Source: Pyrobaculum sp. (GTDB lineage: Archaea > Thermoproteota > Thermoprotei > Thermoproteales > Thermoproteaceae). From it: a stretch of 26,238 nucleotides of DNA. Below the pieces are notes generated by a model, which saw nothing but the letters and a program-made list of their open reading frames with translations, was not told where the DNA came from and did not search any database. The translations under genes and the position numbers were made by a program. The stretch covers positions 12,559 to 38,796 of the forward strand of contig JBKBOT010000005.1 of NCBI GenBank assembly GCA_046293555.1, in the 5' to 3' direction. Shown here piece by piece: positions 1-16,242 of the stretch; position 1 is the first letter of the stretch; each line of letters begins with the position of its first letter.

Positions 1-681
1 ATACTGGCTATGGCTTGGGGGTTTGCCGCAATGCTGTACGTGATATACCTTTTGATATTACGTCTCGGGAGGCCAGAGGCCGTGTTGCCCGGCCTCTTTT
101 TCGGCACGTTGACCGCAGCCCAGTTTATTGCCAACAAGCTTGTTGACTACGGCATCGGCGTGGCGCCTGCAGGCACAGTAATATTTATGACAAATGTTGC
201 CGTGTTAGACGCGTTGGCAATATTCTACGGCAGGGAATTCGCCATGAGGGTCGTGCGGGCGGGCTTTTTCTTCCAGATGGCAGTGGCCTTTGCCGCATGG
301 TCTGCATCTATCCTCCCGCCGCCGGCCTGGTTTGCCGAAAGGGCGGCAGTTGTCAACAGCGTCATAGCCCCCTCCGCCAGGATTGCAACCGCGTCGCTCA
401 TAGCATATATAGTGTCCTCCACGGTGGATGTCTACATTGTGACTAAATGGCCCAAGTTACACATATTGGCGAGAGTATACAGCTCCTCACTCGTCGCTAT
501 GACTATAGACACCGTGTTGTTCATCTCGCTGGCTTTTGGCCCCACGCTAGAGGTGATAACAGGCCAGATATTGGTAAAATGGGCCCAGATACCACTAGAG
601 GCGTTGTTGATATACGGCATGAGGAGATATGTGGGTAACTCACAGCAAGGCCCCTGCCGCCGCCAAAATCCCCACCACTAG
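1..681 (+). CDS. VUT family (YhhQ/COG1738-like) queuosine/archaeosine precursor (preQ0) transporter; possibly 5'-truncated by window edge
   Basis: Hydrophobic multi-TM protein with family motifs 'ANKLV', 'PAGTVIF...D', 'RIATASLIAYIVSSTVDV' and 'SSSLVAMTIDTVLFISLAF'. Frame is open from base 1; first in-window ATG at 10. Confidence 0.85.
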   Translation: MLAMAWGFAAMLYVIYLLILRLGRPEAVLPGLFFGTLTAAQFIANKLVDYGIGVAPAGTVIFMTNVAVLDALAIFYGREFAMRVVRAGFFFQMAVAFAAWSASILPPPAWFAERAAVVNSVIAPSARIATASLIAYIVSSTVDVYIVTKWPKLHILARVYSSSLVAMTIDTVLFISLAFGPTLEVITGQILVKWAQIPLEALLIYGMRRYVGNSQQGPCRRQNPHH

Positions 682-1425
682 GTTTACCAACACGACGTGT
701 TTACTCCTGGCGAATTCGAGCAACGCCCTTATGGTGGCCAGACTTACAACTACCCCCACCGCCGTCGCCAAGAGGGCCTCTGCTGTGGCCACGGCGCCTC
801 TCTCGGCTGAGTAAGCCAATACGGCGGCTCCCAGCCCTGCTATAGGCGCCAGGACAAAAGAGGCCTTGAAGGCCTCGGCGGGGGAGTAGCCAAGGAGGAG
901 GAGTGTGGCAGTAGTGGCGCCAGACCTGCTGACTCCCGGCAGCGCCGACAGGGCTTGCGCCAAGCCTACTAACGCCATGTCTCTTATAGACATGTCGTCA
1001 AACCTCTTAAGCCCCCTGTAAGTCCCGGCCCTCTGAAGTAACAACGCGTTGGCTATAACCATAACGCCGAGGGCTGCCATCAGCAATCTAGCCGTGTTTA
1101 TAGAGAGGGCCTCTCTGGCCAGGAGGTATAGCGGCACGCCGACAGCTCCCGTAACTGCCGTAGTTATGGCCATATATAGTAGCCACCTCCTCCCCTCCAC
1201 GTCGCCTCTAAGCCCCATCAAGGCCTTTAGATACACCCGCCTGTAGTACAGGAGGACAGCTATCACGGAGGCGCTTTCTAAAAACAGCCCGAGGGAGTAG
1301 GCATAAGCCGGATTTACGTCGGCGAGATAGACCGCTGTAAGCATTATCTGCGTCTTACTGCTTATTGGAAACCACTCCGCCACGCCCTGTATTACGCCGA
1401 GTAGTAACGCAAGGGCGAGATCCAT
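640..1425 (-). CDS. uppP: Undecaprenyl/polyprenyl-diphosphate phosphatase (BacA/UppP family)
   Basis: 'LGVIQGVAEWFPISSKT' and 'GLAQALSALPGVSRSGAT' BacA signature motifs; multi-TM. Confidence 0.9.
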   Translation of the reverse strand: MDLALALLLGVIQGVAEWFPISSKTQIMLTAVYLADVNPAYAYSLGLFLESASVIAVLLYYRRVYLKALMGLRGDVEGRRWLLYMAITTAVTGAVGVPLYLLAREALSINTARLLMAALGVMVIANALLLQRAGTYRGLKRFDDMSIRDMALVGLAQALSALPGVSRSGATTATLLLLGYSPAEAFKASFVLAPIAGLGAAVLAYSAERGAVATAEALLATAVGVVVSLATIRALLEFARSKHVVLVNLVVGILAAAGALL

Positions 1426-1461
1426 GGCGTAAATTACATAATCTATTAAACTTAGCCACTT

Positions 1462-1917
1462 GTGTACATAGTGGTGACAAATTGCACCAGGGAAAAGCTA
1501 AGCCGCCCGGCGCCGGCGAGAGAGCTGTATAGAGGCCCCTCTGTGAAAAACGTCGTGAAGGTAGTAGACGAGGTGAGGGCAAGGGGCGTAGATGTACGCC
1601 TATACATAATTTCTGCCAAGTACGGCCTCGTGAGGGAGGATGAAATTTTAGAACCCTACGACGAGACTCTAGGCGGGAGGCCCCTCCCCGAGATAAAGAG
1701 GTGGGCTAGAGAGGTGAGACTTTTAGAAAAGTTTAGAGATCTACGGGGGGTCATCTTTCTGACAGCCTCGAGGAGTTACTACCACGCCGTGGAGGAGGCA
1801 ATCTGCGAGAAGGAGGTATACGTCCTCTCGAGGTTTAGGCCCAGCTGCGGCAAGTGGGTAAAAACGGGGAATTTCGACAAACATAAAGTTTTGAGAAATT
1901 TGTTACAAGGCCTCTAG
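1462..1917 (+). CDS. DUF6884/YaaA-like hypothetical protein
   Basis: 'C-T-x-x-K...PARELYRG' and 'IISAKYGLV...I.PYD.TL' pattern; GTG start with TATTAAA about 18 nt upstream. Confidence 0.6.
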   Translation: MYIVVTNCTREKLSRPAPARELYRGPSVKNVVKVVDEVRARGVDVRLYIISAKYGLVREDEILEPYDETLGGRPLPEIKRWAREVRLLEKFRDLRGVIFLTASRSYYHAVEEAICEKEVYVLSRFRPSCGKWVKTGNFDKHKVLRNLLQGL

Positions 1918-2285
1918 ACGCCAGAAAGCCCACATGAGGACTCTAGCTCCTCCACCTCCCTCTCGTCAAGTCTCTTAATTACGGCAGATCTCCGTAACTC
2001 CACCTGCTTTCTGCAGGGCGTGAGGTTTGTCACCTCAATTATTACTACATGCCGGCTTCTAGCCGCCGTGGGGGGTTCCCCCAGCTTTTGTAACAAGTCG
2101 CCTAAGTTTTCCCTAGGGGCTATGAAGACTATGCCTGCATAAAAACGTCCATAGACTTTACGCCCCGCGGCGAGATATGCCAGCTCTCCAGGCCGTATGT
2201 CAAAAAGGGGCCTTACCAGATGTCGCCTCGCTCCGGACAAAACCTCCCTGACTATTTCTAAGCTGGCCGAAATTAGGTAAGGCAT
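1914..2285 (-). CDS. Hypothetical protein, probable ASCH/PUA-like RNA-binding fold
   Basis: 'IVREVLSGARRHLVR...IRPGELAYL...VYGRFY' resembles the ASCH GxKxxExR pattern. Start set at ATG 2285 to avoid overlap with the upstream gene. Confidence 0.5.
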   Translation of the reverse strand: MPYLISASLEIVREVLSGARRHLVRPLFDIRPGELAYLAAGRKVYGRFYAGIVFIAPRENLGDLLQKLGEPPTAARSRHVVIIEVTNLTPCRKQVELRRSAVIKRLDEREVEELESSCGLSGV

Positions 2286-2302
2286 GGCAGATTGCAAAGT
2301 GG

Positions 2303-2686
2303 TTAGAGGGGCTTGAAAACCATGAGATATAACATGACCACATATATGGCCCCCCACGCGGGCGTTAATTTACCTCCCATATATCTACGTGGGTTGTCTT
2401 TAGCCCTCTCTGTGTTAACTACATGATATACCTCCAAGACCCCTGCCACCAGGGCGACGCCGAGGGCGTAGTGAATCCAGAGGGGGGACTTGGGGAAGTT
2501 ATAAAACAACACGGCTAACGCCAGCCCCGTGGCAAAAAGCGCGACGGCTGAGGCCAGTTGGGTTTTTGCTAGGGCTGTGGGGAGCGGCTGGCCGTTTTTT
2601 CTAGCCACGAGGTAGCCTCCGGTAGATAAGCCGGCCCAACCCACTAGCGACGTTATGTGGAGTGCCAACAGTAGTTCATAAAGCAT
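2303..2686 (-). CDS. Small 4-TM membrane protein (DUF2269/HemJ-CopD-like)
   Basis: Four hydrophobic helices, 'LHITSLVGWAG' in TM1 and C-terminal 'LYLMVFKP'. Confidence 0.55.
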   Translation of the reverse strand: MLYELLLALHITSLVGWAGLSTGGYLVARKNGQPLPTALAKTQLASAVALFATGLALAVLFYNFPKSPLWIHYALGVALVAGVLEVYHVVNTERAKDNPRRYMGGKLTPAWGAIYVVMLYLMVFKPL

Positions 2687-2708
2687 GAACTAGATTCGAG
2701 TTCCATAT

Positions 2709-3602
2709 TTATTCTTCTACGACGTAGTTTCTCAAAACGCCTATGCCTCCAGCCTCTGCCTCTACTACATCTCCTCCTTTTAGAAACTTCCCTTTCGCCA
2801 TGCCGACTCCAGGCGGCGTGCCGGTAAATATCAGGTCGCCGGGCTTTAGAGTTATGCCTTGTGACGCCCAGTGGACTAGCTGCGGTATGTCGAAAATAAG
2901 GTCTCTAGTGTTGCCCTCTTGTTCCACAACGCCGTTTACCCTAAGCCTTAGCGCCACCTGGTGGGGGTCCGGCAGCTCGTCTTTCGTCACTACATATGGC
3001 CCCGTGGGGGCCGCCGTGTCCATAGACTTGGCCCATATCCACTGTGGCCCCAGCGGCGTGGGGCTTTTGGGGAACTGCCAGTCTCTTGTAGATATGTCGT
3101 TTCCCACCATGTAGCCAAATATGTGGCTAAAGGCCTCCTCTGGCTCTATATACTTGCCGGCCTTCCCGATAACCACCACGAGCTCTACCTCCCAATCCAC
3201 CATCTTGGAGACTTTTGGCTTTATTACCCTAGACTCGTGTCCAACAAGGGCGTTGGGGAACTTGGGGAAGAAATAAGGCCTCTCCGGCGGGGGGGTCCCC
3301 GTCTCTTGTGCATGAGCCCTGTAGTTTATAGCTACGGCAAATATCTTCTCTGGGTTGGGGACTGGGGGTTCCCACACAATCTCGCCGGGGGGATAGAGGG
3401 GGCCCTTGGCGTTTTTTATCTTTTCTAAAATCTCTAAGGCGGGTTGCCCCAGGGATATGAGTTTTTTCATGTCGTATAGAAAGTCGGGAGCTGTGTCTGT
3501 ATTAAATATCTTCATGTAGGCCCTCGGGAGGTCTAAAATACGGCCGTCGAGATAAAGCCCAACGCGCGTCACGCCGCCTTTTCTAAATGTTAACAACCTC
3601 AT
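2709..3602 (-). CDS. Fumarylacetoacetate hydrolase family protein
   Basis: 'KIFAVAINYRAHAQE', 'VDWEVEL', 'GNDISTRDWQ', 'AKSMDT', 'LKPGDLIFTGTPPGVG'. Confidence 0.93.
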   Translation of the reverse strand: MRLLTFRKGGVTRVGLYLDGRILDLPRAYMKIFNTDTAPDFLYDMKKLISLGQPALEILEKIKNAKGPLYPPGEIVWEPPVPNPEKIFAVAINYRAHAQETGTPPPERPYFFPKFPNALVGHESRVIKPKVSKMVDWEVELVVVIGKAGKYIEPEEAFSHIFGYMVGNDISTRDWQFPKSPTPLGPQWIWAKSMDTAAPTGPYVVTKDELPDPHQVALRLRVNGVVEQEGNTRDLIFDIPQLVHWASQGITLKPGDLIFTGTPPGVGMAKGKFLKGGDVVEAEAGGIGVLRNYVVEE

Positions 3603-3639
3603 AGAGAGGCCTATATTTCATATATATAAATCCTTTCCG

Positions 3640-3667
3640 ATATCGAAAAATATTTAAGTTTCGATAT
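3640..3667. promoter_or_regulatory. Perfect 9-bp inverted repeat flanking the PadR promoter TATA box; putative autoregulatory operator
   Basis: ATATCGAAA (3640-3648), 10-nt spacer containing TATTTAA (3651-3657), TTTCGATAT (3659-3667). ATG at 3679. Confidence 0.65.
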
Positions 3668-3678
3668 TCTTGAGACAC

Positions 3679-4107
3679 ATGGGTCCACCACCCTGGGCTT
3701 TCCTCGGGAGGCGGGGGCTAAGAGAGGTGGTCCTCTGGCTACTGTCAGAAAGGCCGCTTAACGGGGCTGAGGTGATTAGAGCGGTGGAAGACCTCACCTG
3801 GGGCTTCTGGAGGCCGTCGCCAGGCTCTGTATACCCACTACTACGCCAGCTGGAGACAGGGGGTATGGTTAAAAAGAGGGCAGACGGGCGCTATGAGTTA
3901 ACTGAAGAGGGGAGGGGGGCCTTAAAGCAAATCCCATGGCCGCGGTGGCCTTTTAGATGGGGGCAGCCTAGAACTATAGATGAGGTTTTAGACGAGCTAG
4001 AGAGCTGGGCCCTCTACCTCTCGGACCTGGCGTCTTCCGACCCGGATAGAGTGGCCCCCTATAGGGAGAAAATTAGGCAAATAGGCGAGATCTTACAGAA
4101 GATATGA
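3679..4107 (+). CDS. PadR family transcriptional regulator
   Basis: 'LLSERPLNGAEVIRAVE...WRPSPGSVYPLLRQLE...Y.LTEEG'. ATG 3679 preferred over TTG 3670 because of TATA spacing (leaderless). Confidence 0.9.
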   Translation: MGPPPWAFLGRRGLREVVLWLLSERPLNGAEVIRAVEDLTWGFWRPSPGSVYPLLRQLETGGMVKKRADGRYELTEEGRGALKQIPWPRWPFRWGQPRTIDEVLDELESWALYLSDLASSDPDRVAPYREKIRQIGEILQKI

Positions 4108-4481
4108 CATTAGAGCTACCCCCTAGAGTTAAGGTACTTGAAGCCCTCAGCGCAATTGTCGACAACAGAGTACACGTGATAGCCGACGGGCGTTGTGAGG
4201 TAGTGTCTTCTGAGGGCGATAGGAGATACCACGTGTTTATACAAGGCGCGGAGGCGTATAGTGATGACAACGGCACAGTGTATAGAGGATACGTCGGCTA
4301 TCCCATAGTTGCATGTCTCATGGCTACCGGGAGGCTTCCAGTAGATATAGAGCTAGGGGAGAGGCTAAGGGGAGTCCCCTGGCGGAAGTTAAATCAACAA
4401 TTTAAGAAATATGAAGAGGTAATTAGGTATATCTACGCCGAGAGGAATATAGAGAGACAAAAGGCTGAGCGGTATATATAA
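4104..4481 (+). CDS. Conserved hypothetical protein; C-terminus probably clipped by a frameshift (ancestral end about 4519)
   Basis: ATGA overlap with padR. An out-of-frame tail IMKKLKEMGLRK* (4481-4519) ends in a GTGA overlap with the queE start. Confidence 0.7.
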   Translation: MTLELPPRVKVLEALSAIVDNRVHVIADGRCEVVSSEGDRRYHVFIQGAEAYSDDNGTVYRGYVGYPIVACLMATGRLPVDIELGERLRGVPWRKLNQQFKKYEEVIRYIYAERNIERQKAERYI

Positions 4482-4515
4482 TAATGAAAAAATTAAAAGA
4501 GATGGGGCTTAGAAA

Positions 4516-5138
4516 GTGAGAGTTTTAGAAATCTTCGCCACACTACAGGGAGAGGGAATCAACTTAGGGAAGCCGGCAGTTTTCGTCAGGCTGGCCGGCT
4601 GCCCCATTAGATGTGTCTACTGCGACACAAAACACTCTTGGGACTTCCACGGCGGCGTGGAGATGTCGCCTAGAGAGATCTGGGAGGGGGCAGCCGCCCT
4701 CGGGGCCACGTGGTGATCGCAGGTTGCGAGCCTCTGATATGGGGGGCTGGAGGAAGTTGTATGTATGTTGAAGTCTATCGGCGCTGTGGAGATAGAGACA
4801 AGCGGCGTCTATAGCCCCAGCGAGAGGCTTGACTCCTGTGTGGACCTTTACGACGTCTCCCCAGAGCTATCTAACGCCGGGGTCAAGGCGCCTCTTATTA
4901 CGTCAAGAGCCCAAAGGCCTGGTTTAAGTTTGTAGTAAAAAACCCAGACGATATCAGAGAGGTGATTATATATACGGAAAAAATTGGGATACCTAAAGAA
5001 AGAGTTCTATTAATGCCTATGTCACAAACGATAGAAGAACACACAGAGATTTTAAGAAAGATTTGGGACGTCGCAGTGACGGCGGGACTTAGGGTAACTC
5101 CGAGACTTCACATAGCGGCTGGGCTGTTATCTCGTTAA
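4516..5138 (+). pseudogene. queE: 7-carboxy-7-deazaguanine synthase QueE (radical SAM), frameshifted pseudogene
   Basis: 'EIFATLQGEG...VFVRLAGCPIRCVYCDT' (CxxxCxxC) is followed, in shifted frames, by 'HVVIAGCEPLIW', 'VEIETSG...DVSPELSNAG' and 'WFKFVV...VLLMPM...LRVTPRLHI'. Frame changes near 4704, 4743 and 4896; premature stop at 4714-4716. Confidence 0.9.
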
Positions 5139-5461: not shown

Positions 5462-5599
5462 ATGGTTAAGGAATATGTCAGACGGCTGAGAGATGTTATA
5501 GATCTACTAGAGTCTGCCGTAGAGGAAGGCGACTGTAAGGCCGTGGAAGAGGCTATAGACGAGTTGAGAAATATTGTAGATGAACTCGAAGAGTATTGA
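5462..5599 (+). CDS. 45-aa acidic helical-hairpin small protein (absent from ORF track)
   Basis: MVKEYVRRLRDVIDLLESAVEEGDCKAVEEAIDELRNIVDELEEY*. Purine-rich codons, amphipathic heptad pattern, GAAAGATAAATAA (BRE/TATA) 26 nt upstream, and it fills the gap before dsrE. Confidence 0.75.
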   Translation: MVKEYVRRLRDVIDLLESAVEEGDCKAVEEAIDELRNIVDELEEY

Positions 5600-6081: not shown

Positions 6082-6753
6082 GTGAGGCTGCCTGTCTTAA
6101 TTATAAACTTTAAGGCTTATCTCGAGGCCTCCGGCAGGCGGGCGGTGGAGCTGGCAAAGGCGGCGGAGAGAGCTGCTAGAGAGCTGGGGGTAGAAATTGT
6201 GGTGGCTCCTAACCACGTCGACTTGGCTTTAGTGGCCCAGTCTGTCTCCATACCTGTATTTGCGCAGGGAACTGCCGTAGAGAGGGCGGGGGCTTTCACC
6301 GCCCATGTGTCTATAGAGGGGGTAAAAGAGGTGGGGGCCAGCGGGCTTATTTTAAACCACAGCGAGGCGCCGCTCAGGCTAAACGACATGGCGAAATTTG
6401 TGGAGAGAGCCAAATCTCTCGGCCTAGACGTGGTGGCTTGCGCTCCAGATCCACGCACCTCACTAGCCGCGGCGGCCCTCCTGCCGGACGCCGTGGCTGT
6501 AGAGCCTCCGGAGCTCATTGGGACGGGTAGGGCGGTTTCGAAATACAAGCCTGAAGCTATAGTGGAGACAGTGAGACTTGTGGCGTCCCACTTCCCCAAT
6601 GTGGCTGTGATCACTGGCGCCGGCATTGAGAGCGGGGAGGATGTAGAGGCTGCAGTCAAGCTCGGCACAAGAGGCGTCTTGGTGGCCAGCGCCGTGGTTA
6701 AGGCAAAAGACCCCTATCTGAAGATCTTGGAGTTAGCCAGATATCTGAAATAG
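6082..6753 (+). CDS. tpiA: Triosephosphate isomerase (archaeal type)
   Basis: 'IINFKAY', 'LNHSE', '[11 protein letters not shown]', 'GAGI', '[11 protein letters not shown]'. Confidence 0.96.
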
Positions 6754-6755
6754 TC

Positions 6756-6806
6756 GCGGCAGGGCCGCCTCACGTGCCTGCCGCCCACGAGCCCCCGAGC
6801 CGGGGG
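6756..6806. other. Two GC-rich hairpins between convergent genes (3'-end structure or small RNA)
   Basis: GCGGCAGG(6756-63)/CCTGCCGC(6777-84) and CCCCCG(6792-97)/CGGGGG(6801-06). Confidence 0.4.
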
Positions 6807-6820
6807 GACGTTATATATTG

Positions 6821-9451: not shown

Positions 9452-11221
9452 TTAGCGTTTACGGAGTTTGAGATATTCCTCGAGAGTTTTTAGCTCGTCT
9501 TCTCTAAGGTACTGCCTATATCGGAATATCCACTGCCGTGTCTGTTCCTCTGGGATTTGTACATATAGCGTGTCTCCCTCCCGTATCTGGCGGCCTATCA
9601 TCACGTCGCCTTGTATGGAGATGGCCACCTCGTCGCCGGCGGTAGCCTCGTTGACAGGCTTGCCGTGTTTTTGTATCTGCATAACTCTGCCCACCTCCCT
9701 TCCGTCTTTAACTAACGTCACGCCGGGCTTGATGGTGCCTGCAAGCACCTTGACGCCAACTATGGCCGGGTTGCTACGTCTAAACACAAAGCCGGGGAGT
9801 ATCTGTATCTTACCGGGCCTGGCCATTTGGGAGAGTACCTGCTCGATAGACTTGGCCTTCACCTCCTGGGCCCACTTCATGTATTCATCAAATATGCGGT
9901 ATAGTATGTCCCCCCTAACTATCTTGATCTGTGTAGACATGGCCTCTTTTTCTACCTCAGGCGGTATCTTCACATTAAAGGCCAACACCACGCCGTAGGT
10001 GGGGTCTTTCCTCCTGCTTAACGTCGCCTCCACGATGTCTTTATGCGTTGGGGGCCCCACATCTGCCTTCCTCACGGGGACCCCCTGTTGCCTCAAAAAC
10101 AGCACGATGCTTTCCAACGTGCCGAAGGTATCCGCCCTGACTATTACCCCCTCTCTGTCAGACTCTATTTTTATCTCGGCGAGTTCCTCACTTACGTCTC
10201 TAAGCGCCGTGGGGAGCTCCTGTGGGTCCCATATGGCCAACAGGGGGGCTCCCGCCACCACGCCCTCTAGCCCCTCGGCCACTATGCGCACGCCCGCCGC
10301 CGCCTTGACTTCCTCCACAGCCATGTAGCGGTCTTCTGGGTCTCTCATCTCCTCCAGCGGCTTTGGCATTATTAACATCTTGACTCTTGTCTCTCTAGGC
10401 CCGTCTACCCCCGCGGTGACAATCACGTCGCCCTTTCTTAACCTCCCGTCGTAGATAATTACGTCTGCCACCGTACCGAGACCCCTCTCTTCTTTCACCT
10501 CCATCACCACCCCCCTGCCGGGGCCGTCCCCCACCTGAAGTCTCTCTCGTGAGAGAAACCTCTGGCTGACGCCAGCCAAGACCAGCAGGAGGTCTGCAAC
10601 GCCCTCGCCGGTGACGGCGCTTGTGGGGACTATGGGCACCTGTCTAGAGAAGTCTCTAACCCTGTCGTATCTATCTGCCTCCACGCCTAGGCGGAGCAGC
10701 TGGTCTGACAGCCTGCCGACTAGCTCCTCTAGGGTCGCCGCCGCGTGCCACTCCTGCCCCTCTACAGCCGCTAGGAACGGCCTGTTTTCTACAGACTTCC
10801 AGCCGTATATCCTGTCCAGCTTATTTGCGGCAATGACGTAGGGCACCCCCCTGTTTTGTATCAACTTGAGCGACTCCACGCCCTGGTCCTCAAGCCCGGA
10901 GGTTATGTCTACTACCAACACCGCGAGGTCGGCCACAGAGCCGCCCCTCTTGCGGAGGTTGGCAAACGCCGCGTGTCCCGGCGTGTCTATAAAGAGGAAG
11001 CCAGGTATCCACACCTTCCCCCGGAGCTTAAGTCTGTCCACTAGAGGCGCGGCGAATTTCTCCACGGCATGCCAGGGGACTAGAGACATGCCGATATGTT
11101 GTGTGATCATGCCGGGTTCCCTATATGCCACAGACGTGCCTCTAATCTTGTCTAGCAATAGGGTCTTCCCCACGTCTACGTGGCCCATAACCACCACGAA
11201 TGGCGAGCGGACGTGAGACAT
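9452..11221 (-). CDS. infB: Translation initiation factor aIF5B (IF-2)
   Basis: '[16 protein letters not shown]', 'ITQHIG', '[21 protein letters not shown]', 'NKLD', '[22 protein letters not shown]'. Real start ATG 11221. Confidence 0.97.
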
Positions 11222-16097: not shown

Positions 16098-16148
16098 TAA
16101 AATTTTTAAACGTGTCACAAAAGTGAGACGCCCCGGACGTCGCGGGGA

Positions 16149-16242
16149 GCCGTAGCCTGCGCTACTCCAGCCGGTAGTCTAGCCCGGTCAAGGATGCGGG
16201 CCTCTCGAGCCCGTGACCCGGGTTCAAATCCCGGCCGGGGCA
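16149..16242 (+). tRNA. tRNA-Glu(CTC) with a non-canonical 19-nt intron at position 3/4 (intron 16152-16170)
   Basis: Anticodon CTC 16204-16206 in CGGGC/GCCCG; T arm CCGGG-TTCAAAT-CCCGG. The 3' acceptor CCGGGGC needs GCCCCGG, obtained by joining GCC(16149-51) to CCGG(16171-74). BHB-like motif: GGAG/CTCC helix with bulges CCG and AGC. Confidence 0.9.

Follow-up and report, generated by a model that had tools for sequence, protein, structure and literature searches.

Does a 26-kb stretch of Pyrobaculum DNA record a switch from making to scavenging preQ0, the precursor of the tRNA modification archaeosine? The stretch (26,238 nucleotides of contig JBKBOT010000005.1, hereafter the window) carries a broken copy of queE, the gene for 7-carboxy-7-deazaguanine synthase, and a gene for a transporter of the VUT/COG1738 (YhhQ) family. 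Archaeal TGT inserts preQ0 at tRNA position G15, and in Pyrobaculum calidifontis QueF-like then converts preQ0 to archaeosine, as described in PMC5485725. E. coli YhhQ imports preQ0, and its archaeal COG1738 homologues are proposed to salvage preQ0 (Zallot et al. 2017, PMC5372724). An initial annotation, made from the sequence alone, had combined these observations into a possible change from preQ0 synthesis to preQ0 salvage. The analysis presented here suggests a more limited version of this idea, to which we assign a probability of about 0.5: queE has become a pseudogene recently, the importer is an ordinary and functional-looking one, uptake made the loss tolerable, and archaeosine is now fed by salvage.

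The queE reading frame

The queE remnant measures 623 bp, compared with 651 bp in the intact relatives aligned to it. Its nearest intact counterpart is a 214-residue QueE from a Pyrobaculum sp. metagenome-assembled genome (P0001), which matches the window by tblastn in two sets of frames (E = 1e-71 and 7e-49). Three-frame translation together with tblastn shows that the homology alternates between two frames, in the order 1, 3, 1, 3. In an eight-row DNA alignment (A1), the window is compared with seven intact Pyrobaculum/Thermoproteus queE genes (L001-L007, among them the genes of P. oguniense TE7 and Pyrobaculum sp. WP30). Positions 4703, 4741, and 4897 of the window are each followed by a deletion, of 7, 8, and 7 bp respectively. 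Altogether 22 bp are lost, and all seven relatives are uninterrupted at the three sites. The three frameshifts reported in the initial annotation are therefore real features of this sequence. Translation from the native GTG at 4516 runs into a stop at 4714-4716 and yields an open reading frame (ORF) of 66 residues. Closer to the 3' end, the window and P0001 have another gap in common, of 6 bp, and both sequences end in AAGLLSR, so this gap is a lineage trait and not damage.

Intact Pyrobaculum QueE proteins (P0001, P0012 of P. oguniense TE7, P0227 of P. calidifontis, and P0251 of P. aerophilum) are products of the same gene at the same site, and they have the CxxxCxxC and LQGEG motifs that the window retains. 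They differ in being encoded by open frames of 214-222 codons, whereas the copy in the window is shifted out of frame by three deletions, stops after codon 66, and is altered in the TGGEP and SPK motifs. An uninterrupted frame of about 210-220 codons is thus missing. The 66-residue N-terminal piece still matches the QueE families TIGR04349, TIGR04322, TIGR03365, TIGR03963, and TIGR04508. However, its best NCBIfam score of 68.9 bits, obtained with the pieces scored separately, misses the cut-off of 300, and the other two pieces have no NCBIfam match. Because of the three deletions and the length of the longest ORF from the native start, we classify the gene as a pseudogene rather than as an enzyme, and by these features it is very probably a genuine one. 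Since the deletions wreck the frame after codon 62, this gene cannot support the conversion of CPH4 to CDG.

The first of the four homologous segments (Table 1) retains the CxxxCxxC motif of the 4Fe-4S cluster and the LQGEG substrate-binding motif. These align with C31/C35/C38 and Q13/E15 of E. coli QueE, whose roles are taken from PMC11142719. Conservation is less complete elsewhere. Among 17 QueE homologues 74 alignment columns are invariant, with fewer of them in the last third because one homologue (P0011) has an aberrant C-terminus, and the window deviates at six of the 74 by two deleted residues and four substitutions. The substitutions are Y to H in CDTKYSWD, T to A and G to C in VVITGGEP (giving VVIAGCEP), and K to E in SPKLSNAG (giving SPELSNAG). 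Both motif changes named by the initial annotation, GGEP to GCEP and SPK to SPE, are among them, and the Y to H change is an addition. The window consequently has AGCEP and VSPE in place of TGGEP, which contains the GGE that binds S-adenosylmethionine (SAM), and VSPK, both of them invariant in the 17 homologues. The two motifs are kept also in the E. coli (6nhl) and B. multivorans (4njg) structures, while B. subtilis QueE has SGGNP and its alignment stops before the VSPK region.

These replacements cannot carry the case for inactivation. Counting along the 6nhl alignment puts the glycine-to-cysteine change at E. coli G94 and the lysine-to-glutamate change two residues past S136. G94 and S136 are listed in PMC11142719 as predicted SAM-binding residues, yet the same source describes a negligible effect of G94A and S136A on Q-tRNA when the variants were overexpressed from a plasmid. 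Histidine at the site of the Y to H change is the natural E. coli residue (CDTKHTW). For these reasons we have downgraded the substitutions from proof of inactivation. Judged from the alignments, they point to relaxed constraint, and it is the frameshifts that kill the gene.

One of the 17 homologues shows an irregularity of its own. P0011 is a Pyrobaculum-type QueE of 198 residues found on two contigs. Beyond about residue 157 it differs from all relatives, with a tail rich in Arg and Gly that ends early. The tail looks like the result of a single frameshift, which could reflect either a second decaying queE or a sequencing error.

The decay in the window is recent. QueE is 82% identical between the window and P0001 over 205 comparable residues, and polarising the differences against 15 other homologues assigns 19 derived changes to the window and 13 to P0001. 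Every named Pyrobaculum examined has an intact QueE, which also suggests a rare and recent loss. The damage is local, with three frameshifts in 623 bp, since a scan of the 34 other ORFs in the window found no family split over adjacent ORFs.

The transporter and its distribution

The transporter gene is open over 226 codons to a stop at 679-681. Its product scores 91.1 bits with Pfam Vut_1 (cut-off 27.2) and 62.2 bits with the 'queuosine precursor transporter' model TIGR00697 (cut-off 50.95). In the window the frame is open from base 1, and the start codon and promoter are therefore not visible. The corresponding protein, P0029, is encoded on a contig of 77,217 bp and begins with ILAMAW at the first codon of the window, which probably starts at the end of a contig from a draft or metagenome assembly. 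In relatives the protein is longer by two residues at the N-terminus. A possible start is offered by an ATG at 10-12, of the kind annotated in P0041 of P. arsenaticum. The description of this gene as intact in the initial annotation holds for the open frame, the family cut-offs, and the conserved residues, and it stops short of the start codon.

The closest relative of the protein, P0030, is 89% identical, and other Pyrobaculum orthologues are 70-83% identical. Of the 71 alignment columns without variation in 41 full-length close homologues, it keeps 70. The sole deviation is an Asp to Asn change at position 119 (226-residue numbering; codon AAC, 355-357, plus strand). This change was considered as a sign of decay and rejected. 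Among 129 distant homologues the position holds E in 30, A in 23, N in 14, T in 11, and D in 10, and because it varies in the wider family the replacement is probably harmless. The protein also keeps 13 of 14 positions that are conserved at ≥80% in the 129 distant homologues. The exception is position 74, with Ile for Glu, which is not Glu in the three compared relatives P0030, P0035, and P0040 either. Family-conserved residues that remain include K46, D70, G77, R127, R158, D170, F174, and K193. Because conserved residues are retained in this way, the transporter is probably functional. Its predicted substrate is preQ0 or preQ1.

E. coli YhhQ belongs to the same Pfam family, but the window protein differs from it in several respects. 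It fails the YhhQ-specific model NF008406 (18.9 bits against a cut-off of 252), and the Pyrobaculum clade lies far from characterised members, the next representatives being at most 38% identical. In a scan of 1.84 billion representatives, 379 relatives passed E ≤ 0.001, and a single one of them is both more than 50% identical and full length. A sequence search of the PDB found no solved relative, its only match (E = 0.1) being an unrelated protease. YhhQ feeds queuosine at position 34, whereas in the window host the imported precursor would feed archaeosine at G15.

Both genes are widespread in the genus. Cluster look-ups find intact QueE of 216-222 residues in P. aerophilum, P. calidifontis, P. 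islandicum, P. neutrophilum, P. oguniense, P. arsenaticum, P. ferrireducens, and Pyrobaculum sp. 3827-6, and queE is open in Pyrobaculum sp. WP30. The proposal that many Pyrobaculum lack queE was rejected on this evidence (P. aerophilum, P. calidifontis, P. islandicum, P. neutrophilum, P. ferrireducens, and P. arsenaticum). A contig scan for queE loci is not usable for scoring absence, as the QueE of P. ferrireducens contains the peptide patterns of the scan and yet was not returned. Transporter orthologues occur in P. aerophilum, P. calidifontis, P. neutrophilum, P. oguniense, P. arsenaticum, and many further Pyrobaculum records, so that at least five named species carry the transporter and an intact QueE together. 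P0001 and P0030, the closest relatives of the two window genes, are both encoded on a 14,788-bp contig, very probably one and the same, in which case the nearest relative has both genes. This co-occurrence across Pyrobaculum, and probably in the nearest relative, suggests that the importer is ancestral and normally occurs alongside de novo synthesis. Judged by its distribution, the transporter is an ancestral, genus-wide Pyrobaculum orthologue and not a lineage-specific or newly recruited partner. Only the loss of queE is special to the window lineage, and no named Pyrobaculum examined has it.

The distance between the two genes, given earlier as about 4 kb, is 3.8 kb when measured from 681 to 4516, and four genes on the opposite strand lie within it. 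The initial annotation had treated this proximity as a clue, which the comparison with relatives does not sustain. Searched by tblastn with the transporter of the window, the 80 queE loci that were fetched contain no relative of it at less than 10 kb from queE. This result (0/80 loci) and the opposite-strand genes in between led us to reject a functional link based on proximity. The two genes do not form an operon and are transcriptionally unlinked, and their spacing is a matter of chance synteny.

Genes around the queE remnant

ORF listing together with Pfam and NCBIfam scans describes the window as an ordinary stretch of archaeal chromosome (Table 1). On the 3' side of queE it continues with a DsrE2-like gene and genes for triose-phosphate isomerase (TIM), ribosomal protein S6e, aIF5B, HisRS, and others.

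Table 1. Features of the window around queE and the transporter gene, with the orf125 homologues of related loci
Feature	Coordinates	Strand	Evidence and remarks
VUT/COG1738 (YhhQ-family, TIGR00697) transporter	1-681	+	Pfam Vut_1, TIGR00697
UppP/BacA	640-1425	-	ORF listing and family scans
DUF6884 protein	1462-1917	+	Pfam, 66.6 bits
Uncharacterised ORF	1914-2357	-	ORF listing
Uncharacterised ORF	2303-2686	-	ORF listing
FAA-hydrolase-family enzyme (FAH)	2709-3602	-	Family scans
PadR-family regulator	3670-4107	+	Pfam PadR, 51.7 bits; 3' end overlaps orf125 start (ATGA)
orf125, 125 residues, intact, uncharacterised	4104-4481	+	Directly 5' of queE
queE pseudogene (7-carboxy-7-deazaguanine synthase)	4516-5138	+	Homology to intact QueE
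queE segment A, frame 1	4516-4703	+	GTG start, LQGEG, CPIRCVYC; followed by the first 7-bp deletion
queE segment B, homologous in frame 3 only, GHVVIAGCEPLI	4704-4741	+	Out of frame from the native start; followed by the 8-bp deletion
queE segment C, frame 1, GLEEVVCML...SPELSNAGVKAPL	4742-4897	+	Followed by the second 7-bp deletion
queE segment D, frame 3, YVKSPKAWFKF...RLHIAAGLLSR	4898-5138	+	TAA at 5136-5138
45-residue acidic ORF just 3' of queE	5462-5599	+	ORF listing
TIM	6082-6753		Family scans
orf125 homologues in related loci	L001 1558-1932; L002 9319-9693; L003 9576-9950; L004 9552-9920; L005 499-873; L007 8659-9033

In six Pyrobaculum loci (L001, L002, L003, L004, L005, and L007), the gene immediately before queE is a homologue of the small gene orf125. 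Orf125 was considered as a broad partner of queE and rejected, as none of the other 74 loci has it near queE. The order FAH, PadR, orf125, queE is retained in L002 and L007, and L001, which begins inside FAH, has FAH, orf125, and queE with no PadR match. PadR homologues lie upstream of queE in L002, L003, and L004, and in L007 (WP30) a remnant with 53 matched residues is found. Orf125 has no match in the Pfam copy searched. Its Atlas features indicate UCP014422 (PF27709) at 0.96 and, weakly, SWIM at 0.83. The gene is intact in the window despite the dead queE.

Other details of the neighbourhood vary among relatives. Two extra genes separate PadR from orf125 in L002 (6251-8114), L003 (7722-9579), and L004 (5936-7793), one an ORF with an ABC-ATPase-like P-loop and the other an ORF of about 400 residues. 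Both are missing from the window, where PadR overlaps orf125. The 45-residue ORF has counterparts 3' of queE in L001 (about 3449-3814) and L007 (about 10599-11072) that were found as an antisense-frame match. Further downstream, the gene order of the window (DsrE2, TIM) is unlike that of the relatives.

A match to the Rfam family Pyrobaculum asRNA3 (RF02793) covers 6751-6807 on the plus strand at the 3' end of the TIM gene, and its 50.7 bits exceed the gathering threshold of 46. Together with 60-90% identity to Pyrobaculum proteins, this sequence match places the source of the window in or next to Pyrobaculum. The DUF6884 protein is a stand-alone one with the motifs CTREK and ISAKYG, which correspond to the family motifs CxxxK and LSAxxG. 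We rejected its gene as a queuosine-related candidate, since the Pfam 2024 paper connects this family with YaaA and suggests that it acts in DNA repair, and no tie of the protein to deazaguanine metabolism was found.

A tRNA-Glu(CUC) gene in the window is longer than automated calls suggest. It spans 16130-16241 on the plus strand, compared with 16169-16241 in ARAGORN and 16170-16242 in Rfam. The 3' acceptor strand CCGGGGC (16235-16241) lacks a partner just before U8 and pairs perfectly with GCCCCGG at 16130-16136. The segment of about 38 nucleotides in between (approximately 16137-16174, with boundaries made ambiguous by CCGG repeats) resembles a non-canonical intron in the acceptor stem, of a kind known from Thermoproteales. 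Position 16130 is preceded, at a distance of about 25 nucleotides, by an A/T-rich box, and the minimum free energy fold of the gene forms the acceptor stem and the T arm.

Synthesis, salvage, and the alternatives

If the remnant is the only queE, de novo synthesis of preQ0 would be blocked at the QueE step (CPH4 to CDG), and only another queE copy would relieve the block. A lineage already able to take up 7-deazaguanine bases could tolerate such a loss. Archaeosine at tRNA G15 would then rely on preQ0 that is imported or recaptured from tRNA turnover, and free archaeosine base is described as deamidating to preQ0 (PMC5699537). Present dependence on preQ0 salvage can be put forward tentatively, at somewhat below even odds. 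That the uncultured population is a natural preQ0 auxotroph, keeping archaeosine only by importing bases from neighbours or from tRNA breakdown, is a bolder claim and a rather doubtful one. It would amount to a 'Black Queen' loss, among hyperthermophiles living together, of the pathway to a tRNA-modification precursor. The switch from synthesis to salvage envisaged by the initial annotation survives in part: the death of queE is real and uptake is still possible, but the importer is genus-wide and older, so that only the loss is new. Its suggestion of comparing the locus across relatives leads to a loss of queE that no named Pyrobaculum examined shares and a transporter that coexists elsewhere with intact QueE.

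Several points weigh against the salvage proposal. The view is limited to 26 kb, and the contig is probably metagenome-assembled. The excess of 19 over 13 derived changes in QueE lacks statistical significance and has a parallel in the transporter, with 13 vs 8. To these must be added the negligible effect of G94A and S136A in E. coli, the unseen 5' end of the transporter gene, and its remoteness from YhhQ, all described above. No assay of any archaeal COG1738 protein was found in the literature consulted. Finally, the QueE family includes a second lineage, made up of Vulcanisaeta-type proteins and one 'Thermoproteus sp.' protein, which are 42-45% identical to P0001.

This second lineage gives substance to the best surviving alternative, in which there is no auxotrophy. 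The cell would be served by a functional QueE encoded elsewhere, be it a paralogue or a Vulcanisaeta/Thermoproteus-type copy gained by horizontal transfer, and the window copy would have decayed as redundant. Thermoproteales do hold the two QueE types, the second including 'Thermoproteus sp.' P0111, and the visible 26 kb would not reveal a gene located elsewhere. We nevertheless consider this explanation unlikely. The dead copy occupies the ancestral position next to orf125 that is common to six Pyrobaculum loci, and no second queE is found within the window. In the QueE cluster look-ups, a search not aimed at paralogues, the P. aerophilum members differ in length only (216/222 residues) and other named isolates appear once each.

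Loss of queE could also be the first visible casualty of a pathway that is being lost or is dispensable as a whole, with the transporter kept for other reasons or not yet decayed. Archaeosine is non-essential in H. volcanii, whose tgt deletant is described as viable and cold-sensitive (PMC3017900), and because the decay of queE is recent, other genes of the pathway might still look undamaged. No arcTGT, QueF-like or other archaeosine synthase, or second queE was found by Pfam and ORF scans of the 26 kb. This explanation is quite improbable given the condition of the transporter, which keeps 70/71 clade-invariant and 13/14 family-conserved positions. That all named Pyrobaculum examined retain QueE is an argument for the modification being important to this genus of hyperthermophiles. 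Both tRNA genes of the window still have G at position 15, which by our reading is weak evidence in the same direction.

A third possibility is that the breaks are assembly or sequencing errors, or that a defective allele entered the consensus while most cells are intact. The probable metagenomic origin of the contig and the frameshift-like C-terminus of the environmental QueE P0011 lend this some credit. However, the indels of 7, 8, and 7 bp are not single-base homopolymer slips, they cluster in one gene while the other scanned ORFs are whole, and four substitutions at invariant residues are not expected from indel errors. Multi-base indels that are confined to one gene, together with the replacement of invariant residues, make an artefact an unlikely cause, and we give this explanation a low probability. 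Programmed recoding, in which ribosomal frameshifts would express queE, has in its favour only that homology continues across the breaks and can be dismissed, since three shifts would be needed, 22 bp of conserved codons including residues invariant in 17 homologues are physically gone, and the breaks are common to no relative (7/7 intact).

The salvage proposal has precedents in two kinds of known system. Bacteria with TGT and a COG1738 or ECF transporter but no preQ0 synthesis genes are described in PMC5372724 and PMC5699537, and they follow the same logic, in that the de novo step is gone and the importer is kept. The window differs from them in coming from an archaeon whose loss is caught as a pseudogene, and in being known here from 26 kb that hold no TGT signature gene. 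The H. volcanii queE (HVO_1717) deletion mutant of Blaby et al. 2010 (PMC3017900) is likewise an archaeon without QueE and is described as having no archaeosine in defined medium. The authors of that study suspected that queE and queC deletants obtain preQ0 from rich medium by salvage. The queE mutant is a laboratory knockout in a halophile, whereas in the window the gene has been inactivated naturally, in a lineage of hyperthermophiles. That archaea might salvage preQ0 by means of COG1738 proteins has been proposed before, in the accounts given in PMC5372724 and PMC5699537, and the present case adds one more example to a known pattern. A limited literature search found no report of a Pyrobaculum queE pseudogene or of a natural archaeal preQ0 auxotroph.

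No new mechanism is implied, as the loss of a biosynthetic gene with retention of an importer has already been described for bacterial queuosine precursors. If the rest of the genome agrees, with arcTGT kept and no second queE, then this lineage would be a documented natural archaeon living on scavenged preQ0. It would support the prediction that archaeal COG1738 proteins salvage preQ0 and would provide a natural test case for it. It would also mean that 7-deazaguanine bases circulate in hot-spring communities.

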